From Candidatus Aminicenantes bacterium (GTDB lineage: Bacteria > Acidobacteriota > Aminicenantia > UBA2199), in NCBI GenBank assembly GCA_011772425.1, contig WVZO01000485.1, forward strand, positions 40,514 to 104,513: a stretch of DNA of 64,000 nucleotides, read 5' to 3'. The translations under genes were made by a program, and so were the position numbers. Shown here piece after piece: positions 34,229 to 64,000 of the stretch. Below the pieces are notes generated by a model. That model ran no database searches and was not told the origin of the DNA. It saw only the letters and a program-made list of their open reading frames with translations. The stretch's first letter is position 1, and each line of letters begins with the position of its first letter.

Positions 34229-35560
34229 ATGAACATAGAAGGAAAATTAAAAAACGACTTTGGGCCGTCGGAGAAGAAAGATTATTATGAGTTATCTTCG
34301 GCCCAGAAGAGATTTTACATTTTACATCAAATGGAGCCGCAGTGTACTAAATATAATATATCGACCCTGTCTGTACTGGAAGGCGAACTGGACCTGGAAT
34401 TATTGGAAAACATATTCCAGAGACTAATAAACAGGCACGAAAGTTTAAGAACCTCATTTATCCTGGTAGAAGGTAAACCGGTCCAGAAAATTTATAAACA
34501 TGTGGAATTTAAGATCGAGTATGATGAAGCAGATAGACCTGAAGAAGCAATATTAAAAGATTTTGTACGACCTTTTGATTTATCCCGTCCCCCCTTACTG
34601 AGGGTGAGATTGAGCAAGATAAATGAAAAGAAACACCTTCTTATATTCGATATGCATCAAATCACAGCAGATGCAGCATCTCAAGTACTACTGAAGAAAG
34701 AATTGATGGCATTATATGCCGGCAAGGAACTTGAGTCTTCAAGCATTCAATACAAAGATTATGCGGAATGGCAGAAACATATAAAACAAGAAGATTGGCT
34801 AAAAAGCCAGGAAGAGTATTGGTTAAACATGATTGCTGGAAAAATCTCCGTACTGAATCTTCCTACCGATTATTTGAGACCTGCAATTCAGAGTTTTGAA
34901 GGTGATTCATCAGGTTTTGAAATAAGCAGCGAAGAGACGACCGCCTTAAAAACACTGGCACTGGAACAAGAGACCACATTGTATGTGGTTTTCCTGGCAA
35001 TTTTTAATGTTTTCTTGAGCATTGTAAGCAACCAGGAAACGATCAGAGTCGGAACACCGGTGTCTGGTCGAATTGATAAGGATATAGAAAATGTCCTCGG
35101 GGTGCTTGAGAATAAACTCGTATTAGTTAATGATCCGGTTGGTGAAAAAACCTTTATAGAGTTTTTGGGAGAGGTAAAAAAGAAAACCTTAGAGGTATTT
35201 ACAAACCAGGATTATCCATATGAAGACCTGGTGGATAAAGTTGCAGCCGACACCGATATGAGCCGTAATCCTCTATTCGATATTATGTACGAATTTATGG
35301 AGTCTGATTATGAGATTCCGGAAATGGAGATATCATCGTTGAAGTTAAGACGTTATAAATATGGGAACGAGATAGGGACCACTGGTTTAGATTTGACTTT
35401 ACGAGGATTTGAGGAAGGAGATCGTCTGTTTTTTACTTTTGAATTCTGCACGAAGGTTTATAAAGAAGAAACGATCAAACGATTTATCGCTTATTTTAAA
35501 AGAATTGTATCGTCCATAATCACAGAGCCATTGCAAAAAATTGGGGCGATTGAGATTCTA
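34229..35560 (+). other. C*: full-length C-like domain at the N-terminus of g7 whose catalytic motif reads HQITAD instead of HHxxxDG
   Basis: YYELSSAQKRFYILHQ...LLIFDMHQITADAAS. The second His is replaced by CAA (Gln) at 34658-34660, and the Gly after Asp is replaced by Ala. Confidence 0.8.
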
Positions 35561-43571: not shown

Positions 43572-43577
43572 TAAAAA

Positions 43578-43584
43578 AAGGAGG
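43578..43584 (+). promoter_or_regulatory. Shine-Dalgarno site of g9 (supports ATG 43591)
   Basis: AAGGAGG, 6 nt before ATG 43591. Confidence 0.8.
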
Positions 43585-43590
43585 AAGGAT

Positions 43591-44320
43591 ATGAATAGAA
43601 ATGTTCTTATTCCTATAGATGGGTTTGAAAATGAAAAGATATATTGGTTGAACAAATTGTCCGGAGAATTAAGTGAAGTAAAGTTAGTGGCCGATTTCCC
43701 AGGGAAGGAATGCTGCAGAACAGCAAATTATAAACTATTATTTGAAAAAGAAATAACACAACACTTAATCCGTATAAGTAAGAATAATGATTTGTCTTTT
43801 TTTGTGATTCTATTGACCTCTTTTAAGATACTGCTTTTTAAATATACCCAGCAGAATGAAATTATCGTCGCATCTCCAACTTATAGTAAAAGCAATCAGA
43901 AGTATAATCGAAATGTAGTGTTTAGAGATTTTATATACCCGGAAATGACCTTTAAGGAAATATTATTGAAAGTTAAACAAACTGTAGGGGAAGGATATAG
44001 AAACCAGTATTTTCCCATTAGACGATTAATCGATTTATTGGATGTAGGAGATACGTTATCATTATTCCGGGTCATTGTATTATTGGAGAATATTCATGAC
44101 AAAGAATCCGTGGATGAGATTACAAGGGATTTTGAGAATGATATTACCCTTTCCTTTCGAAGAACTGGCGAAGAATTGGAAGCCAATGTAATCTACAATT
44201 CAAGTTTGTTTAAGGAGGAAACGGTACAAAGGTTATTTGTTAGTTTTCAGCATGTTTTGATTCAAATATCGGGGAATACCGATATTGAAGTAAAGAACAT
44301 TGAAACGATTCCCAGGGAAG
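43591..44320 (+). other. C-half at the N-terminus of g9
   Basis: MNRNVLIPIDGFENEKIYWLNKLSGEL.. through ..IETIPREVTNEILHEFNKT, with no His motif. Confidence 0.8.
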
Positions 44321-50300: not shown

Positions 50301-53300
50301 GGAGGAGAGTTTCACGGCACTGCTTGAAGAAGGCCGGCAGGAGACCCTGGATTCCTATGAACACCAGGATTATCCCTTTAATCTCCTGGTTGAACAATTG
50401 GGCCTGGATCGTGATGTCAGCCAATCTCCCCTGTTCAATGTAATGGTTGCTCACATTAACCTGGGGAAACAGGAAGACAAACTGTTGATGGACGGGATTA
50501 CCCTTGAAGATTCCTCTGAACTTGAGAATTTTAACATGAGTGCCTTTGATTTGATATTTTTTATGGAGGAGGTGGAGGACCATATAAATTGTATATTCAA
50601 TTATAATAGCGATTTATTCGAAGCGGCTACAATCGAACGTATGTCCGTTAATTTCTTAACGTTCCTGGAAAATGCCGTCGATAACCCGGATTTACCGGTC
50701 TCGCAATTGAGTGTGATCGCTGAGGCGGAATCTCGAAAGATAATATGCGAGTTCAATGAAAACCAGCAGGAGTTTCCGTCCCTGACACTCCAGGAGCTCT
50801 TTGAACACCAGGTGGAAAAATCCCCGGGGAAAACAGCCGTTGTTTATTATAAGGATGAAATCACCTATAACGATTTAAATAAGAAAGCCAATCGATTGGC
50901 CCATTACCTAAGAGACCAGTATGGTGTGGGAAAAGGTAAGATTATCGGCATATGTATCGACCGCAGCATCGAGATGGTAACAGCCCTGTTGGGAATCATT
51001 AAAGCCGGGGCGGGTTATGTGGCCATTGATCCCACTTACCCGGAAGATCGCGTATTACATATGCTCAATGATAGTCAGGCTGATTTATTAATCATTGACA
51101 AATTAAGGCCCCACCTGTTTGCAAACTATAAAGGGAAAATGATTGATATCCATTCGGGTTGGACGGATATCTCGTTAAAATCCACTGAAAATCCGGAACT
51201 GATCAATGATTTTTCCGATATCTTGTATGTGATATACACTTCCGGTTCAACCGGGACCCCCAATGGTGCGATGCTGTCTCAGGGGATTTTATCCAATCTT
51301 ATCCAGTGGCAGGAAAATAACACTTCTATCGACGCTTCCGGGCCCTGCTTACAATTTACCTCCGTGAATTTTTGTGTCTCCTTCCAGGAGATAATGATTA
51401 CGCTGACCTCCGGGGGAGAAGTCCACCTGATTGACGATATTGAACGGCGTGATATCGATTATTTAATGGATTTTCTTTCAGAGCATAAAATTGAGTTGTT
51501 GTACTTGCCCTTTTCCTATCTTAATTTTCTATTTAATGAATCCAGCCGATGGGGAGAGAGTTTTAAGCATGAATTAAAGCATATTATCACTGCCGGTGAG
51601 CAATTAAAAATAACCAGGGGATTAAAGGAGTTCCTGGAGTGCAATCGACATATAAAACTGCACAATCATTACGGTTCATCGGAGATGCATGTGGTTACTT
51701 CGTACACCATGGATTATACCGAAGCGGATACCCGTCCCGTTCCACCGGCGGGAAAGCCCATTGCCAACACGAGGATATTTATCCTGGATGAACACCGTAA
51801 TCCCGTACCTATCGGCGTTTGGGGAGAATTGTGCATTGAAGGCAGTTGGGAAGTGGCAGGATATATTAATAACAGAGAACTTACCGATAAGAAGCTTATA
51901 TCCCACCCTGTTTTAAATGAAGGCAATAAACATCTTTATTGTTCCGGCGATATTGGGCGTTGGCTGCCGGACGGCAATATAGAATTGAGGGGAAGAAAAG
52001 ACACGCAGGTTAAAGTTCGGGGTTTCAGGGTAGAACTCAGTGAGATAGAGAGTAAAATATTAGCTGTAGAGGGAGTAAACGATTGTGTGGCAGTCGTGAA
52101 ATCGGATGAGAAGGGAGAGAAATACCTGGCCGCTTATGTGGTGGTGGAAGAGGTTGATGTGGGTGAAATTAAAAAGCAGCTCAACAATTATTTACCCCAG
52201 TACATGATACCCAAATTATTGGTACTGGATAAATTGCCTCTTATGCACAATGGAAAAGTGGATCGAGATAGGTTACCCGACCCGGAAACAATGGTAAAGG
52301 CTATTTATGATATTAAACCGGGTACGGTTTCTTCTTTATTACGTTCAGGGGATTTTCAACCGCAGGAATGGCAAAATATATCGCTCCTGGATGCGGATAA
52401 ATCTACAGTGGAAAAGGTGATTGCCTATTTTACCTCCCTGGTCCGGGATCAATTTCTTGATGAGACCGTTGGGGTGAGCCAGATCGATATTAATGTGCTT
52501 ACCGGGAAGGATAAGGAACGGTTATTGTCGGAGGCGGGTGAACCCGGGGTGTCGTCAAGCCATGACCGAACACTGCAGGGGTTTTTTGAAGAGCAGGTTA
52601 GCGAAACGCCGCGCAATATTGCTGTTATAGAGTATATGGAATGCTCTACTCTCACCTACGAAGAATTAAATAAAAGGTCTAATCAATTAGCCCATCTCTT
52701 AAGAAGAAAAGGCGTTCAACCGGGCACTGTGGTGGGAGTGATGATAAAACCTGGCATAGAGATGATTATCGGGATAGCCGCTGTTTTAAAGGCGGGAGGC
52801 GGTTACCTGGCCGTGGACCGGGACCTTTCATCAGACGAAGCGATTGCATTGTTAAAAGAGAACAATGTCTCAATGGTGTTGAGCAGCACCGCTGCCATGG
52901 GTAAACATCCTTTTAAAAAATTCCTGGGATTTGCAACAAACGGGGTAGAACCTCATATTTCCTGCATCCGCCAGCAGATCACTGATTTTAACGGTTTACC
53001 CATTCCTGACCGGTCGCTGGTGGATTATGAAAAGTACGGTAAAAATATCGGTTTGGCCATGGCTAAGCATACCATTACGCTGCAAGCCACCCGAGGTTGT
53101 CCTTATAATTGCCTTTATTGTCATAAAATCTGGCCGAAAAAACATGTGATTCGTTCGGCGGAAAATATTTACCAGGAGCTTAAGCTTTACTACGACATGG
53201 GCGTTCGCCGGTTTGTGTTTGTGGATGATATTTTTAACCTGGATATGGAAAACAGCAAGAAATTCTTCGAAGCCATCATTGCCAACGGCCTGGAGGTTCA

Positions 53301-56300
53301 GCTTTTCTTTCCCAACGGCTTACGCAGCGATCTGTTAACCAGAGATTATATTGACCTGATGGTAAAGGCAGGAACGGTTTCGCTGGGGTTGGCCCTGGAG
53401 ACCGCCTCGCCCCGGCTGCAAAAGTTGATTAAAAAGAACCTGAACCTGGAGAAACTCCATGAAAACCTAAAGTATCTTTGCTCCCATTATCCCCAGGTGA
53501 TCGTAGAGCTTTTCTTGATGCACGGTTTTCCCACTGAAACCGAAGAAGAAGCCCGGATGACTTTAGATTTCCTTAAAAGTCTCAAGTGGATCGATTTTCC
53601 CTATTTTCATATCCTGAAGATTTATCCCCATACGGATATGGCTGAGATGGCGGTACAAAACGGCGTATCGGCAGAGGCCATCGCCCGTTCGGCAGACCTG
53701 GCATATCACCAATTGCCTGAAACCCTTCCCTTTGATAAAAGCGTTACCCTTCGCTTCCAGACTGAATTCTTGAATGACTATTTCCTCCGAAAAGACCGGT
53801 TGTCGGCCAAACTCCCCTATCAAATGAGGGTATTGACAGAAGATGAAATCGTCCAAAAATACAACAGCTACCTGCCGGTGGACATTAAAACCTTTGAAGA
53901 TTTCCTGGATTTTGCCGGCATTTCAAAAGAAGAATTGATAACCCTGGAATTCCTGGATGAGGAAGCGGTATCAACTCCCGGTTTAAATGATAAACTCATG
54001 GATCATTTTCCTGTAAATAAACCGGGTAAGAATGCCTTAAGGATTTTGCTGCTGGATTTATCCCAGTTTTTCAGTGGAGAAAAAGATATTCTTTATGATG
54101 GTGTAGAGCCGCCGTTGGGTTTGATGTACTTGCTGACCTGGTTAAACCGGCAATTGGGAAACAAAATTGCCGGGAAGATTGCCAAATCACGCATCGATTT
54201 TGACAATTATAAGCAATTGAAAGCCCTGCTTGATGAGTTTCAAGCGGATATAATCGGCATACGAACCTTAACCTATTATGGAGATTTCTTCCATAAAACG
54301 GTTTCCCTTATCCGGCAGTGGGGCATCGATGTTCCCATTGTAGCAGGGGGCCCATATGCTACCAGCGATTTCGCCACTATTTTGCAGGACCCCAATGTAG
54401 ATCTGGTGGTATTGAGTGAAGGTGAGTTAACATTTTGTGAATTGATGGAAAAAGTCCTGGAAAATAACGGTGAGCTGCCGGATGACAGTGTGTTAAGAGA
54501 TATCCCCGGGCTCGCTTTTATCCCCGGTACCCATAAAGATGATCGTTACCGTAAAGAGAAGCGGGAAATTCTCCTGTTGGACGAGCTCAGGGATATGTTG
54601 AGTGAAGAGCCGGATAAAAACCCTGAACCTGTTAATGAGCTGACCGATCTGGCTGCTGTCATCTATGGGACTGGTTCAAACCGGCAGCAAGTCAGACTCC
54701 CGGTGTCGCATAAAAATGCAATTCAAATGCTATCCGGGTTAAGGGAAGATTTTTATGCCGGGTACAACAGCAGCGGCGGTGCGGAATTCCCGGTGATGAT
54801 CGGTTCATGGGTATTTAACGGTTCCCTGGAACAACTGTTTGCAGCCCTGCTGCAAGGGGGAACGCTGTGTGTGCCCCCGGGAGATACCCGCATTGATGAT
54901 ATCGGTTTATTGGAGTATTATAAGGAACGGAATAAGGAATCCGCCGGGACTTTCCTACACCTGCGGTTAATGTGGAAAGGCGGTCATAAAGGTATGAAGC
55001 AACTTCCAGGTGAGGAAGATTATACAGCACCCACCAACCAAATAGAAGAAGTTTTAGTGGATATCTGGTCGGAGGTCCTGGGAATAGGCAAAGACATGAT
55101 TGGTATTGATTCCGACTTTTTTGAGGTGGGAGGGCATTCCTTGAAAGCCACTATCGTGGTATCCAAAATACATAAAAAATTCAATGTAAGAGTACCGTTG
55201 GCTGAGATGTTTAAAGCCTCTACCATCCGTGAGTTGGTCCAATATATAACGGAAGCCTCTAAAGTTGAATACACCCACGTGGAGGCAGCGGAGGAGAAGG
55301 AATATTACCCCTTATCTCCGGCACAAAAGCGGTTGTATATTGCGCAGCAATTCGACTTGAAGAGTTCCGGTTACAATTTGCCCCGTATATTTATTCTGGA
55401 GGGAAAACCGGATGCAAAGAAGATGAATGATACCTTTAAGCAAATGATTGAAAGACATGAAAGCTTTCGATCGTCTTTTATAAATGTAAATGATGAGCCG
55501 GTCCAAAAAATCCGTGATCATGTGGAATTTGGAATCGAAGATTATCAGGTTGAAGTTGACGTTCCCATTGAGGAGATAACCCGGGGCTTCATTCGTGCTT
55601 TTGACCTATCGCAGGCACCGCTGCTGCGGGTGGGATTGATGCATATGGGAAAAGAAAAATATATCCTGATGATGGATATGCATCATATCATCACGGACGG
55701 TATTTCCATGGCGATTTTCGTCAACGAATGGATGGCCCTGTACTGTGGAGAGGAATTACCGGCGTTAAAGCTTCATTACAAGGATTATTCGGAGTGGCAA
55801 GGGCGGTTGTGGAAAAATGACTCCCAGGCTCTGGAAAGCCAGGAAAACTTCTGGTTGAAGCAGTTTGAAGGTGAAATATCCGCATTGACTCTCCCATTGG
55901 ACTACGAGAGACCGGGCGTATTTCAGTTTGAAGGGAAGCAATACATTTTTGAAATAGGCAAAGAAGAGACAGAGGCATTAAGAAACGTGATAAAAGAGGA
56001 AGATGTAACTCTTTTTATGTTTTTGCTTGCGGTTTTTTATGTTTTGTTGGCAAAAACCAGTGGTCAGGGGGACATCGTGGTGGGAATCCCGGTGATGGGA
56101 CGAAGGCATGCCGATTTTCAGTCGATAATCGGGATGTTCGTCAACTCCCTGGCCTTGAGGAATTACCCCGAAGCAAAGAAAACCTTCAAAGAATTCTTAA
56201 TGGAGTTAAAAGAAAGAGCTTTGAAGGCATTTGATAACCAGGACTACCAGTTTGATGAATTAGTGGATAGGTTGGATATTGAACGGAAACCCAATCGAAA

Positions 56301-56649
56301 TGCGCTTTTTGATGTGATGTTTGGGATGCAAAATCTTGGCGATCAAACGCAGGATGTATTGGAAATATCAATTCCCGGGTTGAAGTTAACGCCTTATGAT
56401 GATGAAAGCAAAGTTTCGAAAATTGACCTGGTTTTTTATGCCTATGAAAAAGTCGAAGGAATCGATTGCCTGTTTGAGTACAGTACAAAATTGTTTAAAC
56501 CAGAAACCATTGAGATATTGAAAGATCGTTACATCATCTTACTTAAGAGGATATTGGCAGACCTGGATTGCAGGATTGGGGACCTGGATTATCGAACCGA
56601 AGTAGAAAAAGAGTTAGACAAAGTCGAAGATGTCGGCTTTGATTTCTGA
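43591..56649 (+). CDS. g9 NRPS, C-half / A / T / C / A / T / C / A (no T) / decayed A shell carrying an rSAM+B12-like cassette / T / C / tail
   Basis: The ORF track starts at 43555. I prefer ATG 43591, which has AAGGAGG at 43578-43584. The N-terminus ..FENEKIYWLNKLSGEL.. is the C-terminal half of a C domain only. T motifs: GGHS 46030-46041, 49222-49233 and 55129-55140. C His motifs: HHIITDG 46615-46635, HHTISDGW 49795-49818, HHIITDG 55681-55701. rSAM motif CPYNCLYC at 53098-53121. Ends ..KVEDVGFDF. Confidence 0.95.
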   Translation: MNRNVLIPIDGFENEKIYWLNKLSGELSEVKLVADFPGKECCRTANYKLLFEKEITQHLIRISKNNDLSFFVILLTSFKILLFKYTQQNEIIVASPTYSKSNQKYNRNVVFRDFIYPEMTFKEILLKVKQTVGEGYRNQYFPIRRLIDLLDVGDTLSLFRVIVLLENIHDKESVDEITRDFENDITLSFRRTGEELEANVIYNSSLFKEETVQRLFVSFQHVLIQISGNTDIEVKNIETIPREVTNEILHEFNKTEVEYPEYETIHRLFERQVERTPDHMAVACMEHAASITYRRMNERANQLARVLKERAVDTGCIVGLMMHDSTEMAVAILGVLKAGGAYLPIDPDYPQERKVYIAKDSHLNILLVGSSLSGGITGIHSPLLIIPLTGETLAGFDTANLQRTGSASDIAYVIYTSGTMGRPKGVVVEHKGLVNFTYWRLKFHGFNERDVTLQLFSPCFDGFGSNFYSSLLSGGTLLVVSASRKQDYEYIKKIVEHKGVTNATLVPGMYEALLDLAEGDELESIRFVVLAGERTRENILEKALEKNPNVIHINEYGPTETTVGATANANLNRDDTAVIGKPISNMRVYILDPSLKLVNVGVPGELYISGVGVARGYLNNPELTSEKFINNSFFPGEKMYKTGDLARWCPDGKIEFLGRVDFQVKIRGFRIELEAIEKHLLEYPLIKEAVVIAEAPPWKQGHSSYESSDKFLCAYIVSDMDFVTFEPGLKEFLSGVLPDYMIPSYFVPIEKIPMTTTGKVNRRALPEPEMAAGKEIVVTPPRDEMEETLAGVWSDVLSINRELIGIDNNFFDLGGHSLKATIASAKIHKELHVDIKLSDIFEFRTIRELAGYIKKAALTTYTSIESVEKRDYYFLSSAQKRLYILQQMEPDNTSYNIPIFLTLEKGIDELKLEETFKRLIERHESLRTSFEMFDDEPVQRAHEFVEFKMEYFEAGGDEEVEAIRKNFVRFFDLFQAPLLRVGVIHTPVFGQPSQEGNSKDTRILMVDMHHIITDGVSQDILTRELVRLYEGEELSCLRLQYKDFSEWQNGEEQKKIIESQKSYWMNAFSGEIPVLNLPADYPRPRVQSFEGCTFHLALDETELRVLKDISREAETTLFMSVLSVFYILLSKVSGQEDIIVGTPAAGRQHADLEHIIGMFVNTLALRNNPVGSKTFYEFLHEVKQRTLEVFENQEYQFEDLVENAAVNINRDASRNPLFDVMFAWDKQEDGGHQGEELNLKPFNFSTETSKFDMTLFALEEKNRLSLIVEYCTKLFKEATIERFIGYFKKIITEIFGNPDRKISGVEILFETEKSLILHGFNETEITYPKDRTIQELFEEQVEKTPGKISVVFKDKHITYNELNMKSDQLAGVLRRKGVRPDTIVSMMADRSLEMVIGILGILKAGGAYLPIDPGYPEERKKFMFNDCDSRILLTQKSYLDHGDFARIVLDIESDEAFRGQSPVNLDHSLCSDNLVYVIYTSGTTGKPKGTLTMHYNVTRVVRDTNYIDLNWDDRVLQLSNYAFDGSAFDIYGALLNGAALVMIKQEDILAADILADLIKREKISVFFVTTALFNTLVDIGIESFDGIRKVLFGGERVSMDHAGRALEYLGKDRIIHVYGPTETTVYASYYFIDEIGEDWDTIPIGKPLANTTAYILDRYLKPQPIGVPGEIYIGGDGLARGYLNRPVLTSEKFIANPFGEGELLYKTGDLAIWDTDGCITFLGRIDHQVKIRGFRVEMGEIENHLLSHEKVKEAFVTVLEGRGGSSGGSGEGDRRLCAYIVPSLSTTELDVSALKEFLSGELPVYMIPTYFVPLDKLPLTPNGKVDKKALPIPESVETGKEYSAPRNQLERKLVGFWSKLLDVDGGKIGIDDDFFDLGGHSLKATVLISRIQRELDVNVPLKNIFEMPTIRELAQYIKDAVEEQYVPVYLVEEREYYDLSYAQQRLWVICQFENESTAYNMPEAFLLSGRLNIESLEQALQNLVKRHESVRTVFIRVEGKPKQKIFHEFSFVLEKADLRQLRLPVKNEKVLEITNAYANQTFDLEKGPLFKAKLVRLEDEKNLLIFNMHHTISDGWSLGIMHREIFTLYNAFSKGNKNSLSPVGLQYKDYTLWHNEQVEKGCYEADRQYWLEKLKDRPNGIELPLDHPRRPVQTFNGGNVYFTIKPGVKSKFHRLNREKETTIFMNFFTLFSIFMSKYTGQQDIVFGSPIAGRKHPELRDLIGFLVNTLVLRAYINPEESFTALLEEGRQETLDSYEHQDYPFNLLVEQLGLDRDVSQSPLFNVMVAHINLGKQEDKLLMDGITLEDSSELENFNMSAFDLIFFMEEVEDHINCIFNYNSDLFEAATIERMSVNFLTFLENAVDNPDLPVSQLSVIAEAESRKIICEFNENQQEFPSLTLQELFEHQVEKSPGKTAVVYYKDEITYNDLNKKANRLAHYLRDQYGVGKGKIIGICIDRSIEMVTALLGIIKAGAGYVAIDPTYPEDRVLHMLNDSQADLLIIDKLRPHLFANYKGKMIDIHSGWTDISLKSTENPELINDFSDILYVIYTSGSTGTPNGAMLSQGILSNLIQWQENNTSIDASGPCLQFTSVNFCVSFQEIMITLTSGGEVHLIDDIERRDIDYLMDFLSEHKIELLYLPFSYLNFLFNESSRWGESFKHELKHIITAGEQLKITRGLKEFLECNRHIKLHNHYGSSEMHVVTSYTMDYTEADTRPVPPAGKPIANTRIFILDEHRNPVPIGVWGELCIEGSWEVAGYINNRELTDKKLISHPVLNEGNKHLYCSGDIGRWLPDGNIELRGRKDTQVKVRGFRVELSEIESKILAVEGVNDCVAVVKSDEKGEKYLAAYVVVEEVDVGEIKKQLNNYLPQYMIPKLLVLDKLPLMHNGKVDRDRLPDPETMVKAIYDIKPGTVSSLLRSGDFQPQEWQNISLLDADKSTVEKVIAYFTSLVRDQFLDETVGVSQIDINVLTGKDKERLLSEAGEPGVSSSHDRTLQGFFEEQVSETPRNIAVIEYMECSTLTYEELNKRSNQLAHLLRRKGVQPGTVVGVMIKPGIEMIIGIAAVLKAGGGYLAVDRDLSSDEAIALLKENNVSMVLSSTAAMGKHPFKKFLGFATNGVEPHISCIRQQITDFNGLPIPDRSLVDYEKYGKNIGLAMAKHTITLQATRGCPYNCLYCHKIWPKKHVIRSAENIYQELKLYYDMGVRRFVFVDDIFNLDMENSKKFFEAIIANGLEVQLFFPNGLRSDLLTRDYIDLMVKAGTVSLGLALETASPRLQKLIKKNLNLEKLHENLKYLCSHYPQVIVELFLMHGFPTETEEEARMTLDFLKSLKWIDFPYFHILKIYPHTDMAEMAVQNGVSAEAIARSADLAYHQLPETLPFDKSVTLRFQTEFLNDYFLRKDRLSAKLPYQMRVLTEDEIVQKYNSYLPVDIKTFEDFLDFAGISKEELITLEFLDEEAVSTPGLNDKLMDHFPVNKPGKNALRILLLDLSQFFSGEKDILYDGVEPPLGLMYLLTWLNRQLGNKIAGKIAKSRIDFDNYKQLKALLDEFQADIIGIRTLTYYGDFFHKTVSLIRQWGIDVPIVAGGPYATSDFATILQDPNVDLVVLSEGELTFCELMEKVLENNGELPDDSVLRDIPGLAFIPGTHKDDRYRKEKREILLLDELRDMLSEEPDKNPEPVNELTDLAAVIYGTGSNRQQVRLPVSHKNAIQMLSGLREDFYAGYNSSGGAEFPVMIGSWVFNGSLEQLFAALLQGGTLCVPPGDTRIDDIGLLEYYKERNKESAGTFLHLRLMWKGGHKGMKQLPGEEDYTAPTNQIEEVLVDIWSEVLGIGKDMIGIDSDFFEVGGHSLKATIVVSKIHKKFNVRVPLAEMFKASTIRELVQYITEASKVEYTHVEAAEEKEYYPLSPAQKRLYIAQQFDLKSSGYNLPRIFILEGKPDAKKMNDTFKQMIERHESFRSSFINVNDEPVQKIRDHVEFGIEDYQVEVDVPIEEITRGFIRAFDLSQAPLLRVGLMHMGKEKYILMMDMHHIITDGISMAIFVNEWMALYCGEELPALKLHYKDYSEWQGRLWKNDSQALESQENFWLKQFEGEISALTLPLDYERPGVFQFEGKQYIFEIGKEETEALRNVIKEEDVTLFMFLLAVFYVLLAKTSGQGDIVVGIPVMGRRHADFQSIIGMFVNSLALRNYPEAKKTFKEFLMELKERALKAFDNQDYQFDELVDRLDIERKPNRNALFDVMFGMQNLGDQTQDVLEISIPGLKLTPYDDESKVSKIDLVFYAYEKVEGIDCLFEYSTKLFKPETIEILKDRYIILLKRILADLDCRIGDLDYRTEVEKELDKVEDVGFDF
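44350..45890 (+). other. g9 A1; code DGSTVAEVGK (closest to the Tyr-type signatures DGTITAEVAK / DASTVAAVCK)
   Basis: FDGFGSN.., ..VTNATLVPG.., ..VVLAGE.., NEYGPTETTVGAT, TGK. Same A subfamily as the g3 A domain. Confidence 0.5.
47550..49085 (+). other. g9 A2, uninterrupted; code DGFFLGVVYK (Ile signature)
   Basis: A2 core at 47794-47829 and A3 core at 48010-48057 are only 181 nt apart. FDGSAFD.., ..ISVFFVTTA.., ..VLFGGE.., HVYGPTETTVYAS. Confidence 0.7.
50760..52290 (+). other. g9 A3; Pro-type code with Asp235 replaced: CVQYIAHVVK. No T domain follows
   Basis: NFCVSFQE (Cys codon TGT at 51373-51375 where FD is expected). P-loop TSGSTGTPNG (Asn codon at 51262-51264 for the usual Lys). YGSSE for YGPTE. 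EGSWEVAGY for the A6 core. Confidence 0.7.
52540..52880 (+). other. N-terminal (A1-A2) part of the decayed A-domain shell in g9
   Basis: ..RTLQGFFEEQVSETPRNIAVIE..LTYEELNKRSNQLAHLLRRKGV... The A2 core is degenerate: LKAGGGYLAVDR at 52786-52821, against LKAGGAYLPIDP elsewhere. Confidence 0.75.
52984..54560 (+). other. Embedded cassette 2 (g9): radical SAM domain followed by a B12-binding-like domain
   Basis: DFNGLPIPDRSLVDYEKY..LQATRGCPYNCLYC (53098-53121) ..ALETASPRLQKLI... From ~54037: LRILLLDLSQ..PPLGLMYLLTWL..ADIIGIRTLT..PIVAGGPYATS..DLVVLSEGELTFCEL..IPGLAFIP. Confidence 0.85.
54652..55020 (+). other. C-terminal remnant of the decayed A-domain shell in g9
   Basis: AAVIYGTGSNRQQ (54652-54690) replaces the A3 core AYVIYTSGTTGKPKG. 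Only ~123 aa separate it from the T-domain leader, against ~364 aa in g7. No A5-A10 cores are present. Confidence 0.75.
56620..56646 (+). other. C-terminal tail of g9: KVEDVGFDF
   Basis: Last 9 codons before the stop. Confidence 0.65.
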
Positions 56650-56729
56650 CAAAAACGAAAATGGCTTGAATTGCAAGTTTTGAGGTCCCTGGATTTCAAG
56701 TTAATAAGAATAAATAGTAAGAGGGAAAT

Positions 56730-57420
56730 ATGGATAACAAAAAGACAAAATTCATTGAAGAGTATTGGTTAAAGCAATTGGATGGAGAATTGCTCGGAGT
56801 TTCTCTCCCATTGGTAAAGGGGGAGCAATATGCTCACGAAGTGCATCCGCAACTAGAAATTTCCGGCGAAATATACACAAAACTGAAAAAAATTGCCAGA
56901 GGTTCGGATGTCGCATTATTTATATTGTTTCTAAGCGCTCTCAATGTGGTTATACATAAATATACAGGAGCCGAAGACCTTGTGGTGGGGACGATACCGC
57001 CGAAGGATAGAGGATTAAAAGAAGAGATAGTACTATGCAGAAATCGGATTACGGGTGATCTAACCTTTAAAGAGTTTGTAACTCACGTCAAGGAAGTTGT
57101 ACTGAAAGCCTTTAACCATGCAGAATATTCTTTTAAGGATATCTATAATAAATTATGTATTAACAAGGGAGTAGAATCATTCGATATATTTAATATTGCG
57201 TTTATTTACGACAAATTCCAGGATAGGGGTAGATTTCCGCTGGCATTTGATTTGCTGATTGTCTTATCTGAGCTGGGGGATCAAGGGGTTATGGAGGTAG
57301 AATATAATACCCAACTTTATTCCGGTGAAATTGTGAATCGGTTCCTCAGGCACATCATTGCTATTTTTGATGATATTTCAGGCAACCTGGAAATGAAAAT
57401 TACGGAAATAGAAATGCTGA
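56730..57420 (+). other. C-half at the N-terminus of g10
   Basis: MDNKKTKFIEEYWLKQLDGEL.. through ..IEMLTSQERKQVLYEFNDT, with no His motif. Confidence 0.8.
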
Positions 57421-60400
57421 CTTCCCAGGAGAGAAAACAGGTATTATATGAATTCAATGATACCAGGGTAGAGTATCCGGCGGATAAAGCCCTTCATGGA
57501 TTATTTGAAGAACAGGCAAAGCAAGGACCTGATGGCATTGCTGTAGTTGACGAAGAGCGTAGAGCGGAGAGCCTAGAGCAACTACAAATAACCTACCATG
57601 AATTAAACCGGAAATCTAATCAATTGGCCTGTTTATTAAGAGAAAAAGGCGTTAAACCCGATACAATTGTAGGGCTTATGGTGGAGCGTTCCGTGGAGAT
57701 GGTCGTTGGGGTATTGGGAATATTGAAGGCCGGCGGTGCTTATTTACCCATAGACCCGGATTACCCGGAAGAACGAAAACGATACATGTTGGCCGACAGC
57801 AATGCGAAGGTTTTGCTTGCTGCGCCAGCGGCTCAGGTTACGCTTGAGGTTAAGGAGAAAGAGGAACCTGTAGAAATAATAGATATTTCTTTAGACTTCT
57901 CTTCCTTAACCTCAACCTTAACCTTAACCTCAATCTTAAGCAAGGTTAGCTCGTCTAACCTTGCTTATATCCTCTACACCTCCGGTTCCACCGGTAGACC
58001 CAAGGCCGTGATGGTAGAGCACCGGAGTGTGGTCCGTTTGGTCAAGAATACCAATTTCCTGGATTTCAATGAAGAGCACCGGGTGCTGCAAACCGGTGCG
58101 TTGGAGTTTGATGCTTCCACCTTGGAGATATGGGGCCCCCTGCTGAACGGGTCACAATTATTCCTGGTGAATAAAAACACCATCTTATTCCCGGAAAGAC
58201 TGAGGGAGACCATGAAAAAGTATCACATTACCACCATGTGGATGACCTCGCCGTTATTCAACCAGCTAGAACAGGCAGATATCGAGATATTTGCAGGTTT
58301 GAGGTACTTGTTGGTGGGAGGCGATGTGCTGAACCCCGTCCATATCAACCGTGTCCGGGAGAAATTTTCTCACCTGCATGTGATCAATGGATATGGCCCA
58401 ACGGAAAACACGACCTTCTCCGCTACTTTTTTGATTGATAAAGAATACAGGGATAATATACCCATCGGCAGCCCCATATCAAATTCTACCGCTTATATCG
58501 TGGACCATCGTATGTATCTGGTGCCCATCGGAATCCCCGGTGAACTGGTGGTGGGCGGCGATGGGATTTCCAGGGGTTATTTAAACCGCCCGGACTTAAC
58601 CGCAGAGAAGTTTATTAAATCTTCACTGAACACTCAACACTTAACACTTAACACTCGTTTTTATCGAACTGGTGACTTGGCCCGGTGGCTCTTGGATGGA
58701 AACATCGAATTCTTGGGCAGGATCGATCAGCAGGTGAAGATCAGGGGATTTCGCATTGAATTGGGAGAGATTGAGAGTCGATTAACCGCACACGGGGATG
58801 TTGGGGAAGCTGTGGTAAGAGTAATATCCACGACGGGCGTGGAGAAAATACAGACACCCGGTGAGAAGGATAAACGATTGTGTGCCTATATCGTTCCCGT
58901 AAATGGGGTAAGCCTGGATATACCTGGACTGCGGGAATATTTGTCTTCGGAACTCCCGGATTACATGATTCCGTCATTTTTCGTTCAATTGGAGAAAATA
59001 CCGTTGACTCCCAACGGTAAAGTAGATCGGAAAGCTTTATCTGTTCCTGAAGTGGAAGCTGGTGAAAAATATACGGCTCCCAGGGATGAGATCGAAGAAA
59101 AGTTAGTGGAATTATGGGCAGAGATACTCATGCTGGATAAAACCGTCATCGGTATTGACGACAATTTTTTCCACCTGGGAGGCCATTCGCTAAAAGCAAC
59201 TGTTTTGATGACCAAGATTCACAATCAATTCAACGTCAGGATAGAGTTGACGGAGATATTTGTAAATCCATTTATAAGAGGACTGGCACGATGGATTAAA
59301 AATGCGAAGAAAGAAAAGTATATCTCGCTGGAACCCGTCGAGGAAAGAGGATATTATCTGTTATCCTCTGCGCAGCTGCGATTGTGGGTGATATGTCAAA
59401 TTGAAGAGGTATCCTCTGCCTACAACGTTCCCTATGCATATATTGTTTCAGGGAAGCTGGACATAGAAGTGTATCGCCGGGCAGTACAGGCATTGGTAGA
59501 TCGCCACGAAGTTTTACGAACGGTTTTTATTAGGATGGATGGTGAACCAATGCAGAAAATTATTCAAAATTTTAAATATGAAGTAGAAGAAATCGACCTT
59601 CGTCACCTGGATGCCAAATCCAGAGAACAGAAGACCATGGAAATATATATGACCAGTGTCAATAAAACCTTTGATCTGGAAAATGGTCCCCTGATGCTTT
59701 TCAGATTCGTTCGCTTGGAGGAAGAAAGATACCTGGTGGTGTACAATTTTCATCACATCATCTGCGATGGATGGTCTGTGGATATTATTAGGGAGGAACT
59801 GTTTAGTTTGTACACTGCCTTTTTAAAAAATGAGAGAATTCCGCTGGAGCCTTTGAACTACCAATACAAAGATTACTCCCAATGGCAAAACGGGTCTATC
59901 TTTCGACAGCAAATAAGAGAACAGGAAGCGTTTTGGTTGAGTGAATTTGAAGAAGACCAAATCCAGCCATTGAACTTGCCTCTCGATTATTCAAGGCCAG
60001 AAATCCAGAGTTTTGAAGGTAGTACATTGGGTTTTGAGATTAGTGCTGAAGAGGCCACAAGGTTAAGAGAGCTGGGAGATGGATCGGGTATTACTCTTTT
60101 TATGAAGTTATTGACCATCTTCAATATCTTTTTATCTAAAGTAACCGGCCAGGAGGAAATTACAATAGGGACCGCTGTGGCAGGACGGCGTCATGGGGAT
60201 TTGCAGAATATAGTAGGCATGTTTGTAAATATGATGGCTCTCAAAAATGCTGTCAGTGAAGATGAAACCTTTAACCGCTTTCTCACAAAAGTAAAGAAAA
60301 AGACACTCCAGGCCTATGAAAATCAGGATTATCAGATCGAAGAACTGATAGAAAAGGTGGTTACCAACAGGGATACCTCTCGCAATCCACTCTTTGATGT

Positions 60401-63400
60401 GGTGTTTGCATTGCAAAACCTGGAGAAAGAGGAAAAGCGAATTCCTGGTTTGATAATGGAACCTTACTGGCATGAACGTACTATACCCAAATTTGACCTG
60501 GTTTTTGTGGGGAAAGAATTAGAAGATACAATATTATTTTCTATTGAATACTGTACAAAGCTGTTCAAAAAGGAAACCATAGCAAAATTCATTGAATATT
60601 TTAAGAAAATAGTATCTGAAGTTCTTAAGGACCCGGGAAGAAAGATCGCTGAGGTAGAGATTATATCGGAGGATGGGAAGCATAAAGTATTGTATGATTT
60701 TAATCGAACCAAGACCCAATACCCCGGAGAAAAAAACCTTCATCAATTATTTGAGGAACAGGTAGAGAAGAGGCCGGAAAAAATAGCCTTAGTAGGCAGT
60801 ACTCAGTATGCAGTAAGCAGTAAAAACAAAGCTGGAGAAGTGGGGCAATTAACCTACCGGGAATTGAATGCAAGATCCAATCAATTGGCGCGATTTTTGA
60901 AGAAAAAAGGAATTTCAACGGATACCTTTGTAGCTATGATGATGGATCGTTCACCGGAGATGATCGTTGGCATACTGGGCATCCTCAAGGCTGGGGGAGC
61001 TTATTTGCCTATTGATCCCGGGTATCCTCATAATCGCATTGAATCCATGCTGGAGGATTCCAATTCATCTATTCTTTTAACAGAAACCGGTGGTGTTGAG
61101 GATCATCATGTATTTACTGGGTTGCAGGGTTTGGAATCCAGTGATGTATCTTTGCAGATCACGGCTCCCAGGCCTCAGATCCTGGATTTTGATGGTTTAC
61201 CTATACCGGACCGTACCCTTATCGATTATGAAAAGTATAATCGATATATTGGGCAGGGGATGGTAAAACATAGTGTCAACCTCCAGGCAACACGGGGTTG
61301 CCCCTATAACTGTGCTTATTGCTGCCGGGTCTGGCCGAAGAAAAATGTGATACGCTCGGCGGAGAATATTTATGCAGAGGTAAAAATGTATTACGAGGCG
61401 GGGGTCCGCCGGTTCGTATTTATTGATGATATTTTTAATTTAAACATCCCCAACAGCAGTCGATTTTTTGAATTGGTAATCAAAAATAATTTAAAGGCGC
61501 AGTTTCTCTTTCCCAGTGGGCTTCGGGGTGATATATTAACAAAAGATTATATTGATCTGATGATGGAAGCAGGAACCATCAGTTTTCCCCTGGCGTTGGA
61601 GACGGCTTGCCCCAGGCTTCAAAAGTTCATTCGGAAACACCTGGATCTCGATAAAGTCCGGGAAAACCTGGAATATATAATGGCAAAATATCCACAGCTT
61701 ATCCTGGAACTTCATACCATGCACGGCTTCCCCACAGAAACCGAAGAAGAAGCAATGATGACATTGAATTTTATTAAAAGCCTGGAGCGCATTCATTTTC
61801 CTTATGTTCACATCTTGAAGATTCATCCCAATACCGGTATGGAGAAACTGGCTCTTGAAAATGGGGTTTCAAAAGAGGCCATCGCCTACTCAAGGAACCT
61901 GGCTTACCATGAACTGCCGGATACGTTACCATTTAAGAAAAGTTTTACAAAAAATTATCAATCGGATTTTTTCAACAATTATTTTCTTTCCAAAAACCGC
62001 CTGCTCCAGGTACTTCCTTATCAAATGAGAACGTTAACCGAGGATGAAATTGTCCAGAAATACAATAGCTACTTGCCCGTAGACATACATAGTATTGAAG
62101 AATTGCTGCAATTCCTGGGGATCGAAAGGTCTCAACTGGGGGTGGAATCTTGTCTGGATGAAGCGAGTATTGCTGTTCCCAATTTAAATGTGAAATTGGA
62201 AAAATATTTCCCCAAGAAAAGGTCTACTGATGGGTTGAGGGTTTTACTGTTGGATTTGTCGCAGTTTTTCACCACTAAAAGCGATATGCTTTATGATGTG
62301 GTGGAGCAGCCGTTGGGGCTCCTTTACCTGATGACCTATATAAACCGGAAGTATGGCGATAGAATTACCGGCAAGATCGCCAAATCCCGTATTGATTTTG
62401 ATAGTTATGGGGAATTAAAGGCTCTTTTGCAGGAATTTAAACCCGATGTCATTGGGATTCGTTCTTTGACCTATTACAGGGAATTCTTTCACCGGACGAT
62501 TGCCATGATACGGCATTGGGGATTCGATGTACCGATTATTGCAGGTGGGCCTTATATTACGGTTGAGTTTAAATCCGTTTTAAAGGATGCGAATATTAAT
62601 TTAGCTGTTCTTGGAGAAGGGGAGAATACCTTTGGTGAAATTATCGGTAAGATACTGGAAAATAAAGGAAAATTACCCGGGGAAGAGGTATTAGAAAAAA
62701 TTGTCGGGATTGCTTATGTTCCCGGAAGAACAGGCGCGAAGGCGGGAAAAGCCAGGGAAATCTTCATGTTGGACCTGCTCCAGGAACAATTATGCAAAGA
62801 ATCTCGTGAGAATTTAGAGCCGGTCAATCAATCCCATCATCTATCTTACAGCATATTTACTTCCGGTTCCACGGGCAAACCCAAGGGGACCCTTACCACT
62901 CATTATAATGTCAGCCGGGTGGTCAGGGATACCAATTATATCGATTTAACTGAGGATGACAGGGTATTGCAGTTATCCAATTATGCTTTTGATGGTTCTA
63001 CCTTTGATATATATGGGGCTCTATTAAATGGTGGAACGCTGGTAATGCTAAAAAAGGAGGAAGTATTATCTATTGATATTTTATCTGGTTTGATCAAAAG
63101 GGAAAATATCTCGGTATTTTTTGTCACCACGGCGATGTTTAATGCCCTGGTGGATGTGAATATCGGTTGTTTAGACAGTGTGCGCAGCGTGTTGTTTGGG
63201 GGGGAGCGGGTATCGGTGAATCATACCAGGCGTGCATTGGAACACCTGGGACCGGGTAAAATCATCCATGTATATGGTCCCACTGAAACCACGGTGTATG
63301 CAACATATTATAGGGTGGATCAGCTAGATGAAGCGTTAGGAACCGTACCCATAGGTAAACCTATATCCAATACCACCATTTATATACTGGATAAATATAT

Positions 63401-64000
63401 GAAACCCGTACCCCTGGGGATTGCTGGTGAAATTTATATCGGTGGCGATGGTACCGCCAGGGGCTATTTAAACAACCCGGAATTAACTGCAGAAATGTTT
63501 ATAAAATTCCCATACTCACCCACTCACCCACTTACCCACTCACCTATATACCGAACCGGCGACCTGGCCCGCTGGCTGCCGGAGGGGGATATCGAATTCA
63601 TTGGTCGTATCGATCAACAGGTGAAAATAAGGGGGTTCCGCATCGAGATGGGAGAAATCGAGCACCAGCTATTGAGCCAGCCGGGTATAAAAGAAGCCGT
63701 TGTCACAGTAAAACCTATAGCTGGAGTACAAGATAAACAACTGTGTGCTTATATCATCCCCGAGAGAGAAGTGGAAGTATCTGAATTGAAAGGATATTTG
63801 TCCCGGCAATTACCGGATTATATGATTCCTACCTTTATCGTCCCGGTTAAGAAAATACCGTTAACGCCCAATGGCAAAGTGGACTGGAAGGCGCTCCCTG
63901 CTCCCAAAGTAGCGGCTGGTAGTATATACACGGCGCATAGGGATGAAATAGAAGAGAAACTGGTAGAGATATGGGCAGAGGTGTTATTTGGCAGCGGCAA
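56730..64000 (+). CDS. g10 (3'-truncated) NRPS, C-half / A / T / C / A interrupted by an rSAM+B12-like cassette / start of T
   Basis: Not in the supplied ORF track because it has no stop before the window ends. Hand translation from ATG 56730 (AGAGGGA at 56719-56725) stays open to nt 63998: MDNKKTKFIEEYWLKQLDGEL... T: GGHS at 59178-59189. C: HHIICDGW at 59751-59774. A2 core at 60984-61019, CPYNCAYC at 61299-61322, A3 core LSYSIFTSGSTGKPKG at 62841-62888, A10 NGKVDWKAL at ~63870-63900. Confidence 0.9.
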   Translation, partial: MDNKKTKFIEEYWLKQLDGELLGVSLPLVKGEQYAHEVHPQLEISGEIYTKLKKIARGSDVALFILFLSALNVVIHKYTGAEDLVVGTIPPKDRGLKEEIVLCRNRITGDLTFKEFVTHVKEVVLKAFNHAEYSFKDIYNKLCINKGVESFDIFNIAFIYDKFQDRGRFPLAFDLLIVLSELGDQGVMEVEYNTQLYSGEIVNRFLRHIIAIFDDISGNLEMKITEIEMLTSQERKQVLYEFNDTRVEYPADKALHGLFEEQAKQGPDGIAVVDEERRAESLEQLQITYHELNRKSNQLACLLREKGVKPDTIVGLMVERSVEMVVGVLGILKAGGAYLPIDPDYPEERKRYMLADSNAKVLLAAPAAQVTLEVKEKEEPVEIIDISLDFSSLTSTLTLTSILSKVSSSNLAYILYTSGSTGRPKAVMVEHRSVVRLVKNTNFLDFNEEHRVLQTGALEFDASTLEIWGPLLNGSQLFLVNKNTILFPERLRETMKKYHITTMWMTSPLFNQLEQADIEIFAGLRYLLVGGDVLNPVHINRVREKFSHLHVINGYGPTENTTFSATFLIDKEYRDNIPIGSPISNSTAYIVDHRMYLVPIGIPGELVVGGDGISRGYLNRPDLTAEKFIKSSLNTQHLTLNTRFYRTGDLARWLLDGNIEFLGRIDQQVKIRGFRIELGEIESRLTAHGDVGEAVVRVISTTGVEKIQTPGEKDKRLCAYIVPVNGVSLDIPGLREYLSSELPDYMIPSFFVQLEKIPLTPNGKVDRKALSVPEVEAGEKYTAPRDEIEEKLVELWAEILMLDKTVIGIDDNFFHLGGHSLKATVLMTKIHNQFNVRIELTEIFVNPFIRGLARWIKNAKKEKYISLEPVEERGYYLLSSAQLRLWVICQIEEVSSAYNVPYAYIVSGKLDIEVYRRAVQALVDRHEVLRTVFIRMDGEPMQKIIQNFKYEVEEIDLRHLDAKSREQKTMEIYMTSVNKTFDLENGPLMLFRFVRLEEERYLVVYNFHHIICDGWSVDIIREELFSLYTAFLKNERIPLEPLNYQYKDYSQWQNGSIFRQQIREQEAFWLSEFEEDQIQPLNLPLDYSRPEIQSFEGSTLGFEISAEEATRLRELGDGSGITLFMKLLTIFNIFLSKVTGQEEITIGTAVAGRRHGDLQNIVGMFVNMMALKNAVSEDETFNRFLTKVKKKTLQAYENQDYQIEELIEKVVTNRDTSRNPLFDVVFALQNLEKEEKRIPGLIMEPYWHERTIPKFDLVFVGKELEDTILFSIEYCTKLFKKETIAKFIEYFKKIVSEVLKDPGRKIAEVEIISEDGKHKVLYDFNRTKTQYPGEKNLHQLFEEQVEKRPEKIALVGSTQYAVSSKNKAGEVGQLTYRELNARSNQLARFLKKKGISTDTFVAMMMDRSPEMIVGILGILKAGGAYLPIDPGYPHNRIESMLEDSNSSILLTETGGVEDHHVFTGLQGLESSDVSLQITAPRPQILDFDGLPIPDRTLIDYEKYNRYIGQGMVKHSVNLQATRGCPYNCAYCCRVWPKKNVIRSAENIYAEVKMYYEAGVRRFVFIDDIFNLNIPNSSRFFELVIKNNLKAQFLFPSGLRGDILTKDYIDLMMEAGTISFPLALETACPRLQKFIRKHLDLDKVRENLEYIMAKYPQLILELHTMHGFPTETEEEAMMTLNFIKSLERIHFPYVHILKIHPNTGMEKLALENGVSKEAIAYSRNLAYHELPDTLPFKKSFTKNYQSDFFNNYFLSKNRLLQVLPYQMRTLTEDEIVQKYNSYLPVDIHSIEELLQFLGIERSQLGVESCLDEASIAVPNLNVKLEKYFPKKRSTDGLRVLLLDLSQFFTTKSDMLYDVVEQPLGLLYLMTYINRKYGDRITGKIAKSRIDFDSYGELKALLQEFKPDVIGIRSLTYYREFFHRTIAMIRHWGFDVPIIAGGPYITVEFKSVLKDANINLAVLGEGENTFGEIIGKILENKGKLPGEEVLEKIVGIAYVPGRTGAKAGKAREIFMLDLLQEQLCKESRENLEPVNQSHHLSYSIFTSGSTGKPKGTLTTHYNVSRVVRDTNYIDLTEDDRVLQLSNYAFDGSTFDIYGALLNGGTLVMLKKEEVLSIDILSGLIKRENISVFFVTTAMFNALVDVNIGCLDSVRSVLFGGERVSVNHTRRALEHLGPGKIIHVYGPTETTVYATYYRVDQLDEALGTVPIGKPISNTTIYILDKYMKPVPLGIAGEIYIGGDGTARGYLNNPELTAEMFIKFPYSPTHPLTHSPIYRTGDLARWLPEGDIEFIGRIDQQVKIRGFRIEMGEIEHQLLSQPGIKEAVVTVKPIAGVQDKQLCAYIIPEREVEVSELKGYLSRQLPDYMIPTFIVPVKKIPLTPNGKVDWKALPAPKVAAGSIYTAHRDEIEEKLVEIWAEVLFGSG
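57904..57939 (+). repeat. In-frame tandem hexamer CCT[T/C]AA x 6 in the A2-A3 spacer of g10 A1
   Basis: ccttaa cctcaa ccttaa ccttaa cctcaa tcttaa, which encodes ..SLTSTLTLTSIL... Confidence 0.85.
58624..58658 (+). repeat. Tandem heptamer CACTNAA x 5 in the A6-A7 loop of g10 A1
   Basis: cactgaa cactcaa cacttaa cacttaa cactcgt, which encodes ..SLNTQHLTLNTR.. between EKF and YRTGD. Confidence 0.85.
61185..62750 (+). other. Embedded cassette 3 (g10): radical SAM domain followed by a B12-binding-like domain
   Basis: DFDGLPIPDRTLIDYEKY..LQATRGCPYNCAYC (61299-61322) ..ALETACPRLQKFI... From ~62235: LRVLLLDLSQ..QPLGLLYLMTYI..PDVIGIRSLT..PIIAGGPYITV..NLAVLGEGENTFGEI..IVGIAYVP. Confidence 0.85.
63513..63544 (+). 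repeat. Tandem octamer [T/C]ACT[C/T]ACC x 4 in the A6-A7 loop of g10 A2
   Basis: tactcacc cactcacc cacttacc cactcacc, which encodes ..YSPTHPLTHSP.. between EMF and YRTGD. Confidence 0.85.

Follow-up and report, generated by a model that had tools for sequence, protein, structure and literature searches.

Locus and gene organization

The 64,000-nucleotide stretch analysed here (the window; contig WVZO01000485.1 of the Candidatus Aminicenantes bacterium assembly GCA_011772425.1, forward-strand positions 40,514 to 104,513) holds a single hybrid nonribosomal peptide synthetase (NRPS)/polyketide synthase (PKS) cluster, with all genes on the plus strand and a G+C content of 40%. The element under study lies in g10, an NRPS gene (56730-64000, + strand) that runs off the window end and in which an adenylation (A) domain is interrupted by a cassette resembling radical S-adenosylmethionine (SAM) enzymes with a B12-binding domain. 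The frame is single and has no stop from 56721 to 63998, with an ATG at 56730 and 2423 codons from there to the window end. Pfam and a phmmer domain map give the layout (C)-A-T-C-A[rSAM-B12]-T... over at least 2423 residues, where C, T and rSAM denote condensation, carrier and radical SAM domains. The Pfam families found in g10 are Condensation, AMP-binding (three stretches), PP-binding, AMP-binding_C, Radical_SAM (residues 1520-1682) and B12-binding (residues 1894-1971).

The T domain that follows is cut by the window end. Its start (63924-63998, +) reads EIEEKLVEIWAEVLFGSG and stands after motif a10, the position that the T domain takes in gene g7 and in related loci. A previous interpretation of this DNA by a model that saw only its letters and open reading frames (the sequence-only reading) had placed a T domain towards this edge, and its start is indeed present. 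No match turned up in the metagenome contigs searched with an exact 42-mer taken from the window end.

The interrupted adenylation domain

The host of the cassette is the A domain of module 2, in which ten of ten core motifs (a1-a10) were found, in the order LTYREL, LKAGGAYLPID, LSYSIFTSGSTGKPKG, FDGS, HVYGPTE, GEIYIGGDGTARGY, YRTGDL, GRIDQQVKIRGFRIEMGEIE, LPDYMIP and NGKVD. Motif a1 lies at 60849-60866 and a2 at residue 1419 of g10; the translation from 60984 opens with LKAGGAYLPIDP, which is the a2 motif (60984-61019), and a3 follows at 62841-62888 after a gap of 1822 nt. The N-terminal part of the domain, with a1 and a2, covers 60750-61085 (+) and was delimited by motifs, domain map and alignment; the C-terminal part, from a3 to a10 (NGKVD at 63870-63884), covers 62832-63884 (+) and was assigned from its motifs, its specificity code and a model of the whole unit. 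When the domain is aligned with uninterrupted A domains from the window, the insertion point falls between '...ILLTE' and 'HHLSYSIFTSG', where approximately 582 residues (61086-62831) take the place of the variable loop of approximately 25 residues that joins a2 and a3 in g9A2, an uninterrupted A domain of gene g9. The specificity code of the host, DGFFLGVVYK, is found with the same ten residues in g7 and in g9A2 and is listed as an isoleucine code for bacitracin module 1 (PMC2866473).

For the complete A[rSAM-B12] unit (1050 residues), the AlphaFold model reached a predicted local distance difference test score (pLDDT) of 87.4 and a predicted template modelling score (pTM) of 0.84. The A-domain halves of this model match solved NRPS A domains with E-values of 1e-36 to 1e-42 among the top 20 (best 5e-42) and with TM-scores of up to 0.70 when normalized on the 480-residue target A domain. 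The input for structure prediction was a reduced alignment (A4) with the A fragments split; two MAFFT alignments were discarded, since uninterrupted A domains (A2) or their a3-a10 fragments (A3) had been forced into cassette columns. It is nearly certain that module 2 of g10 is an intact isoleucine-type A domain carrying a two-domain radical enzyme in its a2-a3 surface loop, as the sequence-only reading had proposed for the host.

The inserted cassette

The boundaries of the cassette (61086-62831, +) follow from alignment with uninterrupted A domains and from AlphaFold. Its radical SAM half (61125-62219, +), assigned from PF04055, NCBIfam and Foldseek matches, consists of an LPxPDR linker, a core barrel (Pfam match at 61287-61775) and a helical extension. 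The sequence CPYNCAYC (61299-61322, +) is a CxxxCxxC motif that is predicted to hold a [4Fe-4S] cluster, its three cysteines being invariant in relatives. C-terminal to this core lies a B12-binding-type Rossmann domain (62235-62717, +; LRVLLLDLS...IIAGGPY...LGEGENTF), recognized by PF02310 on 62409-62642, by a match to TokK and by alternating strands and helices in the model. In a Pfam search of the 607-residue stretch between a2 and a3, Radical_SAM (PF04055; residues 90-252, E = 5e-19) scored 69.5 bits against a cutoff of 29.5 and B12-binding (PF02310; residues 464-541, E = 3e-9) scored 37.1 bits against a cutoff of 32.1; no other family, methyltransferases included, appeared at E <= 1, and both scores lie far outside chance expectation. 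With both profiles above cutoff and the frame uninterrupted, the cassette proposed from the letters alone is upheld, and translation reproduces the a2 and a3 coordinates, the gap between them, the cysteine motif and the segments LRVLLLDLSQ, IIAGGPYITV and VLGEGENTF that had been reported for it.

The B12-binding-type domain retains GGPY and GEGE motifs that align with the cobalamin domain of TokK, and the best Protein Data Bank (PDB) match to a profile of the Rossmann part is that same domain (TokK residues 44-139), at a marginal E-value of 0.005. Modelling of the cassette alone (61020-62840, which includes 22 residues on the a2 side and three on the a3 side) gave a pLDDT of 91.7 and a pTM of 0.91. 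From its conserved residues the radical SAM core of the g10 cassette is apparently functional.

Domain order

The order of the two domains, radical SAM and then B12, is opposite to that in genes g2 and g8 of the window and in the B12-rSAM families scanned, a point absent from the sequence-only reading. The top NCBIfam matches are all to B12-rSAM families (ApyD, BzaD, the ladderane B12 enzyme, PhpK and BchE), and in these alignments cassette residues ~36-290 correspond to profile positions ~150-400, that is, only to the part of each profile that follows its B12 domain. In a homologue (P0021), it is residues 401-537 that align with the N-terminal part (positions 21-156) of the KedN5 profile. When an artificial de-permuted sequence was built by placing cassette residues 396-582 ahead of residues 37-395, single colinear matches were obtained to ApyD (54-389), BchE (51-360) and KedN5 (17-365). 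Because of these three observations the cassette is, as far as profile alignments can tell, a circular permutation of the B12-rSAM architecture.

None of the curated NCBIfam B12-rSAM subfamilies examined (among them ApyD, BzaD, PhpK, BchE, KedN5, AprD4, HpnR and TsrM-type) matched at its cutoff. Reading a function from the closest curated family was considered and rejected, since all of the matches are at superfamily level. Foldseek likewise found no full-length match of the native cassette model to a solved B12-rSAM structure: only the radical SAM half aligns, to AprD4, MgmA, MiaB/RimO, TsrM and CysS (TMq <= 0.38), with Mmp10 and OxsB weaker (TMq <= 0.31, root-mean-square deviation (rmsd) >= 15 Å). 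Alignment of this half alone is expected from the permuted order.

Relatives in other genomes

A search with the cassette returned 1258 matches at the level of 90% identity clusters, the best being 61% identical. The best 150 representatives of 50% clusters each scored at least 999 bits and are nearly all multi-domain NRPS proteins of 1.4-7.9 thousand residues, with five shorter fragments or free-standing proteins among them. A larger set of 5647 proteins at E <= 1e-30 was not used as a family size because the profile spans flanking A-domain columns and may take in ordinary NRPS proteins. Genomic loci with the cassette were recovered in 38 cases (labelled L001 etc.; best 58-59% identical). The carriers include metagenome-assembled genomes (MAGs) of Aminicenantes, Acidobacteriota, Omnitrophota, Deferrimicrobium, Clostridia, Halanaerobiales, Bacteroidales, Spirochaetales, SAR324 and Desulfobacteraceae, together with one cultured species whose genome is finished (Pseudobacteroides cellulosolvens ATCC 35603) and single-cell genomes of Pelagibacteraceae.

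The cassette occurs in four forms: embedded in a complete A domain; as an 'A1-A2 fragment + cassette' that is either free-standing (724 residues) or located behind a complete A domain (g9 and locus L036); as the same fragment and cassette followed by a C-like domain (~1040 residues); and alone (540-600 residues). It appears from these sequences that the cassette is a member of a large, NRPS-associated family that also exists as free-standing proteins. In all embedded copies in which a2 was found, this motif lies 100-102 residues ahead of the cysteine motif. The host codes vary, with DFWNIGMVHK in four cases, codes of the DPW[YM][IL]GTINK type in nine (not counting one variant, DPFYFGTINK, in the two loci L017 and L018), codes of the DVQFIAHVVK type in two, and DLTKVGHIGK, DAWFLGNVVK, DAWTGAAVCK and others besides; we take these Stachelhaus codes to include threonine, proline and aspartate.

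A decayed or otherwise inactive insertion, or an artefact of assembly or frame, is very improbable for g10. Such an origin could be entertained because A domains interrupted between a2 and a3 were first proposed to be inactive (PMC8341866) and because the host of the g9 cassette has lost its A motifs. The g10 frame is nevertheless open, both models are of high confidence, and the cysteine triad and 15 further columns do not vary across an alignment of 123 relatives, each of them only 46-62% identical to the g10 cassette. The same architecture is found in at least 150 independent representatives as well as in the finished genome, and across loci the cassette (51-64% identical) is better conserved than the a3-a10 part of its host (34-46%).

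The divergence of the cassette correlates with that of the host (Spearman 0.55), which together with the conserved insertion site suggests at the sequence level that the cassette is functionally coupled to the host module. An enzyme that acts in cis elsewhere, on the upstream peptidyl chain or the released peptide, with the A domain serving as a mere fusion point and the A1-A2 fragment as a docking scaffold, is for the same reason unlikely, and the interrupted A domains characterized so far methylate their own substrate after it has been loaded on the T domain (PMC8341866). Such an activity would nonetheless accommodate the copies that are detached from an intact host. In L001 (8230-13334), three tandem cassette-only genes stand directly after an NRPS-PKS gene that holds an embedded copy, and L040 (7802-12175) has two tandem 724-residue 'A1-A2 fragment + cassette' genes within an NRPS cluster from Aminicenantes in which an embedded copy is present too; in g9 and L036 a complete A domain is followed by a degenerate A remnant, and the cassette sits in the latter. 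It would also be in keeping with DscE, a free-standing B12-rSAM enzyme that acts on the finished discodermin peptide, an NRPS product, by C-methylating alanine and valine positions (PMC12858407).

The hosts with a code of the unassigned DPW[YM][IL]GTINK type are doubly interrupted (L013, 8345-14770, from P. cellulosolvens; L016-L021; L027; L033): a second insert, adding approximately 420 residues, separates the A core from AMP-binding_C. This insert has, in L013, a QueC-like (PP-loop ATPase) Pfam match at residues 1512-1586. The Pelagibacteraceae (SAR11-type) loci of the L029-L037 set encode a free-standing permuted rSAM-B12 enzyme of 569 residues (e.g. L029, 9905-11614) that is 46-48% identical to the NRPS cassette. 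Its neighbours are a short-chain dehydrogenase/reductase, a TauD-family dioxygenase, an aminoglycoside-type N-acetyltransferase and a canonical B12-rSAM enzyme, a setting that resembles sugar modification, and no NRPS was found in the neighbourhood.

The three cassettes of the window

The g10 cassette is the third embedded copy in the window, after those in g7 (34229-41884) and g9 (43555-56649), and the second whose host A domain is intact, as had been noted from the letters. In g9, module 3 contains a complete A domain (residues 2434-2901) with the code CVQYIAHVVK, in which cysteine occupies the position of the usual Asp235. After this complete domain, the region 52585-55047 presents a degenerate A1-A2 fragment (LKAGGGYLAVD), the rSAM-B12 cassette and a ruined a3 (YGTGSNRQQV), followed by a T domain. 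The g9 cassette is thus carried by a remnant of an A domain, and the same layout is seen in L036, from an Aminicenantes MAG.

The sequence-only reading held that the A(rSAM) unit had been propagated as a module-level building block. In its favour, Pfam, code comparison and alignment confirm that g7 and g10 agree in insertion site, in domain order and in host code. The idea of duplication within the cluster does not survive comparison of the cassettes: those of g7, g9 and g10 are mutually 57-59% identical, they are 55-64% identical to copies in Aminicenantes, Acidobacteriota, Omnitrophota and Clostridia, so that none is closer within the window, and a distance tree does not place them as sisters. 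A recent in-cluster duplication of the unit was rejected on these identities and on the tree.

Between g7 and g10 the host halves share 63-66% identity, and each is 66-67% identical to the uninterrupted g9A2 (47599-49089, DGFFLGVVYK), which is as close to both interrupted hosts as these are to each other. Since the host halves are equally close to an uninterrupted domain, the specificity-bearing a3-a10 part looks, by sequence identity, to have been shared or recombined independently of the cassette, and the likeness of g9A2 is a hint that sub-domain recombination inside the cluster involved the a3-a10 region. The pattern fits an old, mobile and widespread 'A1-A2 + cassette' element that would have been joined to isoleucine-specific a3-a10 regions common within this cluster. 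It is plausible that two residues of the product carry the same predicted radical modification.

Proposed function

We consider it probable that the unit as a whole is an isoleucine-type A domain whose permuted B12-rSAM insert performs radical C-H functionalization, probably C-methylation of a tethered residue. For C-methylation of a carrier-tethered amino acid by the g10 cassette taken by itself, analogy with related enzymes gives slightly better than an even chance. In this mechanism isoleucine would be adenylated by the A domain and loaded on the downstream T domain, and SAM would be reductively cleaved at the [4Fe-4S] cluster of the embedded enzyme. The resulting 5'-deoxyadenosyl radical would remove a hydrogen at an unactivated carbon in the aminoacyl (or peptidyl) thioester that is tethered to the T domain, and methylcobalamin would most probably give its methyl group to the substrate radical, yielding a C-methylated residue. 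The variety of host specificities at one insertion site implies that the enzyme probably targets a position shared by every amino acid, for which C-beta is the best guess. Several cobalamin-dependent (class B) radical SAM enzymes methylate C-beta of varied peptide residues, and PoyB/C and the bottromycin methylases are B12-rSAM enzymes that act on peptides.

Several observations weigh against methylation in cis. The best curated family, ApyD, scores 91.7 bits against a cutoff of 750, and every other family, methyltransferases included, also falls far short of its own. The closest solved structure, both by sequence (E = 9e-13) and by fold (E = 1e-11), is AprD4 (PDB entry 6fd2), which we take to be a dehydratase of the B12-domain radical SAM type that does not use cobalamin. 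Methylation is inferred solely from the behaviour of the majority of class B enzymes, and the predicted cobalamin binding cannot be read from the sequence because base-off/His-off binding, presumably the mode in the solved class B structures, leaves no signature. The candidate substrates comprise an aminoacyl-S-T, a peptidyl-S-T or a free amino acid. Genes g2 and g8 of the same window are free-standing B12-rSAM genes that could methylate in trans.

Because its nearest solved relative, AprD4, is a dehydratase, a different radical reaction is the main rival, possible though doubtful: the cassette would be an active radical SAM enzyme that catalyzes desaturation or dehydration, epimerization, cyclopropanation or cyclization, or formation of C-C or C-heteroatom bonds. 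The Rossmann domain would then be a cobalamin-free scaffold, or cobalamin would be used differently, which is doubtful to the same degree. Besides the structural match to this 1,2-diol dehydratase, the NCBIfam matches include the non-methylating BzaD, the BchE cyclase, HpnJ and the ladderane enzyme. These similarities, however, are at superfamily level (<= 92 bits) and confined to the radical SAM core, a diol dehydratase could not serve isoleucine, proline and aspartate hosts, and the B12 domain has two strongly conserved motifs, GGPY and GEGE, that align with a methylase, TokK. With regard to epimerization, g7 contains between a T domain and its terminal C domain a C-like domain without HHxxxD (residues 1653-1881) that may be a degenerate condensation or epimerization domain; it neither supports nor excludes a separate epimerase. 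C-methylation remains the preferred assignment for the g10 cassette.

Comparison with known systems

In placing a foreign catalytic domain in the a2-a3 loop of an intact A domain, and in combining activation with (here predicted) tailoring in one polypeptide, g10 resembles the TioN A2-M-A3 (S-methylation), TtbB-type A2-Mb-A3 and MarQ proteins, which Lundy et al. 2020 (PMC8341866) class as families 3 and 4. The TioN/TtbB-type inserts are class I SAM methyltransferases of 260-270 residues (M types IV/V, GxGxG) that carry out SN2 N- or S-methylation, whereas the insert of g10 is approximately 580 residues long, has two domains and is predicted to use an Fe-S cluster, probably cobalamin as well, and radical chemistry. 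With class B radical SAM enzymes (TokK, TsrM, CysS, PoyB/C, the bottromycin methylases and the ApyD family) the cassette shares the CxxxCxxC barrel and PF02310-type Rossmann domain, the LPxPDR linker ahead of the cysteine motif and the GGP and GEGE motifs. Those enzymes are free-standing, have an N-terminal B12 domain and act mostly on small molecules or on peptides made by the ribosome and modified after translation (RiPPs); in the g10 cassette the B12 domain is C-terminal. AprD4 also has the canonical order and acts on an aminoglycoside, and its NCBIfam model gives 62 bits on the cassette against a cutoff of 500. Mmp10 is a cobalamin-dependent radical SAM methylase with its radical SAM domain N-terminal and its cobalamin domain C-terminal, the fold of the latter being, as far as is known, of a family other than PF02310. 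This methyl-coenzyme M reductase arginine C-methyltransferase (PDB entry 7qbt) is an archaeal protein-modifying enzyme whose Foldseek match is weak (TMq 0.25-0.27, rmsd 15-16 Å), and no sequence match of the cassette to it was found among PDB sequences.

Radical C-methylation for a nonribosomal peptide, predicted here, is also the role of DscE (discodermin; PMC12858407), CysS (cystobactamid), Arg1 (argyrin) and the watasemycin methylase. These work in trans, keep the canonical order and lack a fusion to any assembly-line domain, whereas the g10 cassette is fused, permuted and predicted to act in cis. An NRPS with a free-standing radical SAM methyltransferase was still termed 'an unusual enzyme combination' in 2025 (PMC12858407). 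The 2020 catalogue of bacterial interrupted A domains recognizes seven families and six M-domain types, and the words 'radical', 'cobalamin' and 'B12' were not found in it (PMC8341866); neither was 'radical' found in a 2024 review of A-domain functions. No description of an A domain interrupted by rSAM/B12 domains was found in the literature searched, subscription-only papers lying outside its scope. The novelty of g10 is that of an interrupted A domain with a known a2-a3 site and a new insert: radical, two-domain and permuted. Whether it represents an undescribed class of on-line NRPS tailoring domain, in which a permuted cobalamin/radical SAM enzyme in the a2-a3 loop methylates or otherwise modifies unactivated carbons in cis, is in our estimate an even call.

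Residue tailoring by interrupted A domains is an established strategy of assembly lines. The catalogued A-domain inserts (class I methyltransferases, KR and Ox) all perform polar chemistry, and such a class would move C-H functionalization of unactivated carbons onto the assembly line itself. NRPSs could then make beta-branched or tert-alkyl residues like those of proteusins and bottromycins without RiPP machinery, and the class would reach hundreds of assembly lines in uncultured, mostly anaerobic bacteria (Aminicenantes, Acidobacteriota, Omnitrophota, Clostridia, Bacteroidales and Desulfobacteria). For genome mining, it would account for many 'AMP-binding / radical SAM' proteins that annotation pipelines now mislabel or split, and would give mining tools a new domain to recognize. 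For protein evolution, the permuted order offers a natural test case for the re-threading of a two-domain cofactor enzyme. The cultured carrier P. cellulosolvens DSM 2933 makes the question tractable.

Free-standing B12-rSAM genes of the window

Gene g8 (41874-43571) shares bases with the end of g7 and with the start of g9 and encodes a free-standing B12-rSAM protein of canonical order, which matches the PhpK family (TIGR04479), a family of radical SAM P-methyltransferases, at 652.6 bits against a cutoff of 600. The exact g8 protein had no match on record. Gene g2 (5800-7707) encodes a 635-residue protein, also of canonical order, whose B12-like domain falls below the Pfam cutoff. Two N-terminal stretches of the CDGSH-type iron-binding zinc-finger kind precede this domain and the radical SAM core, an unusual fusion.

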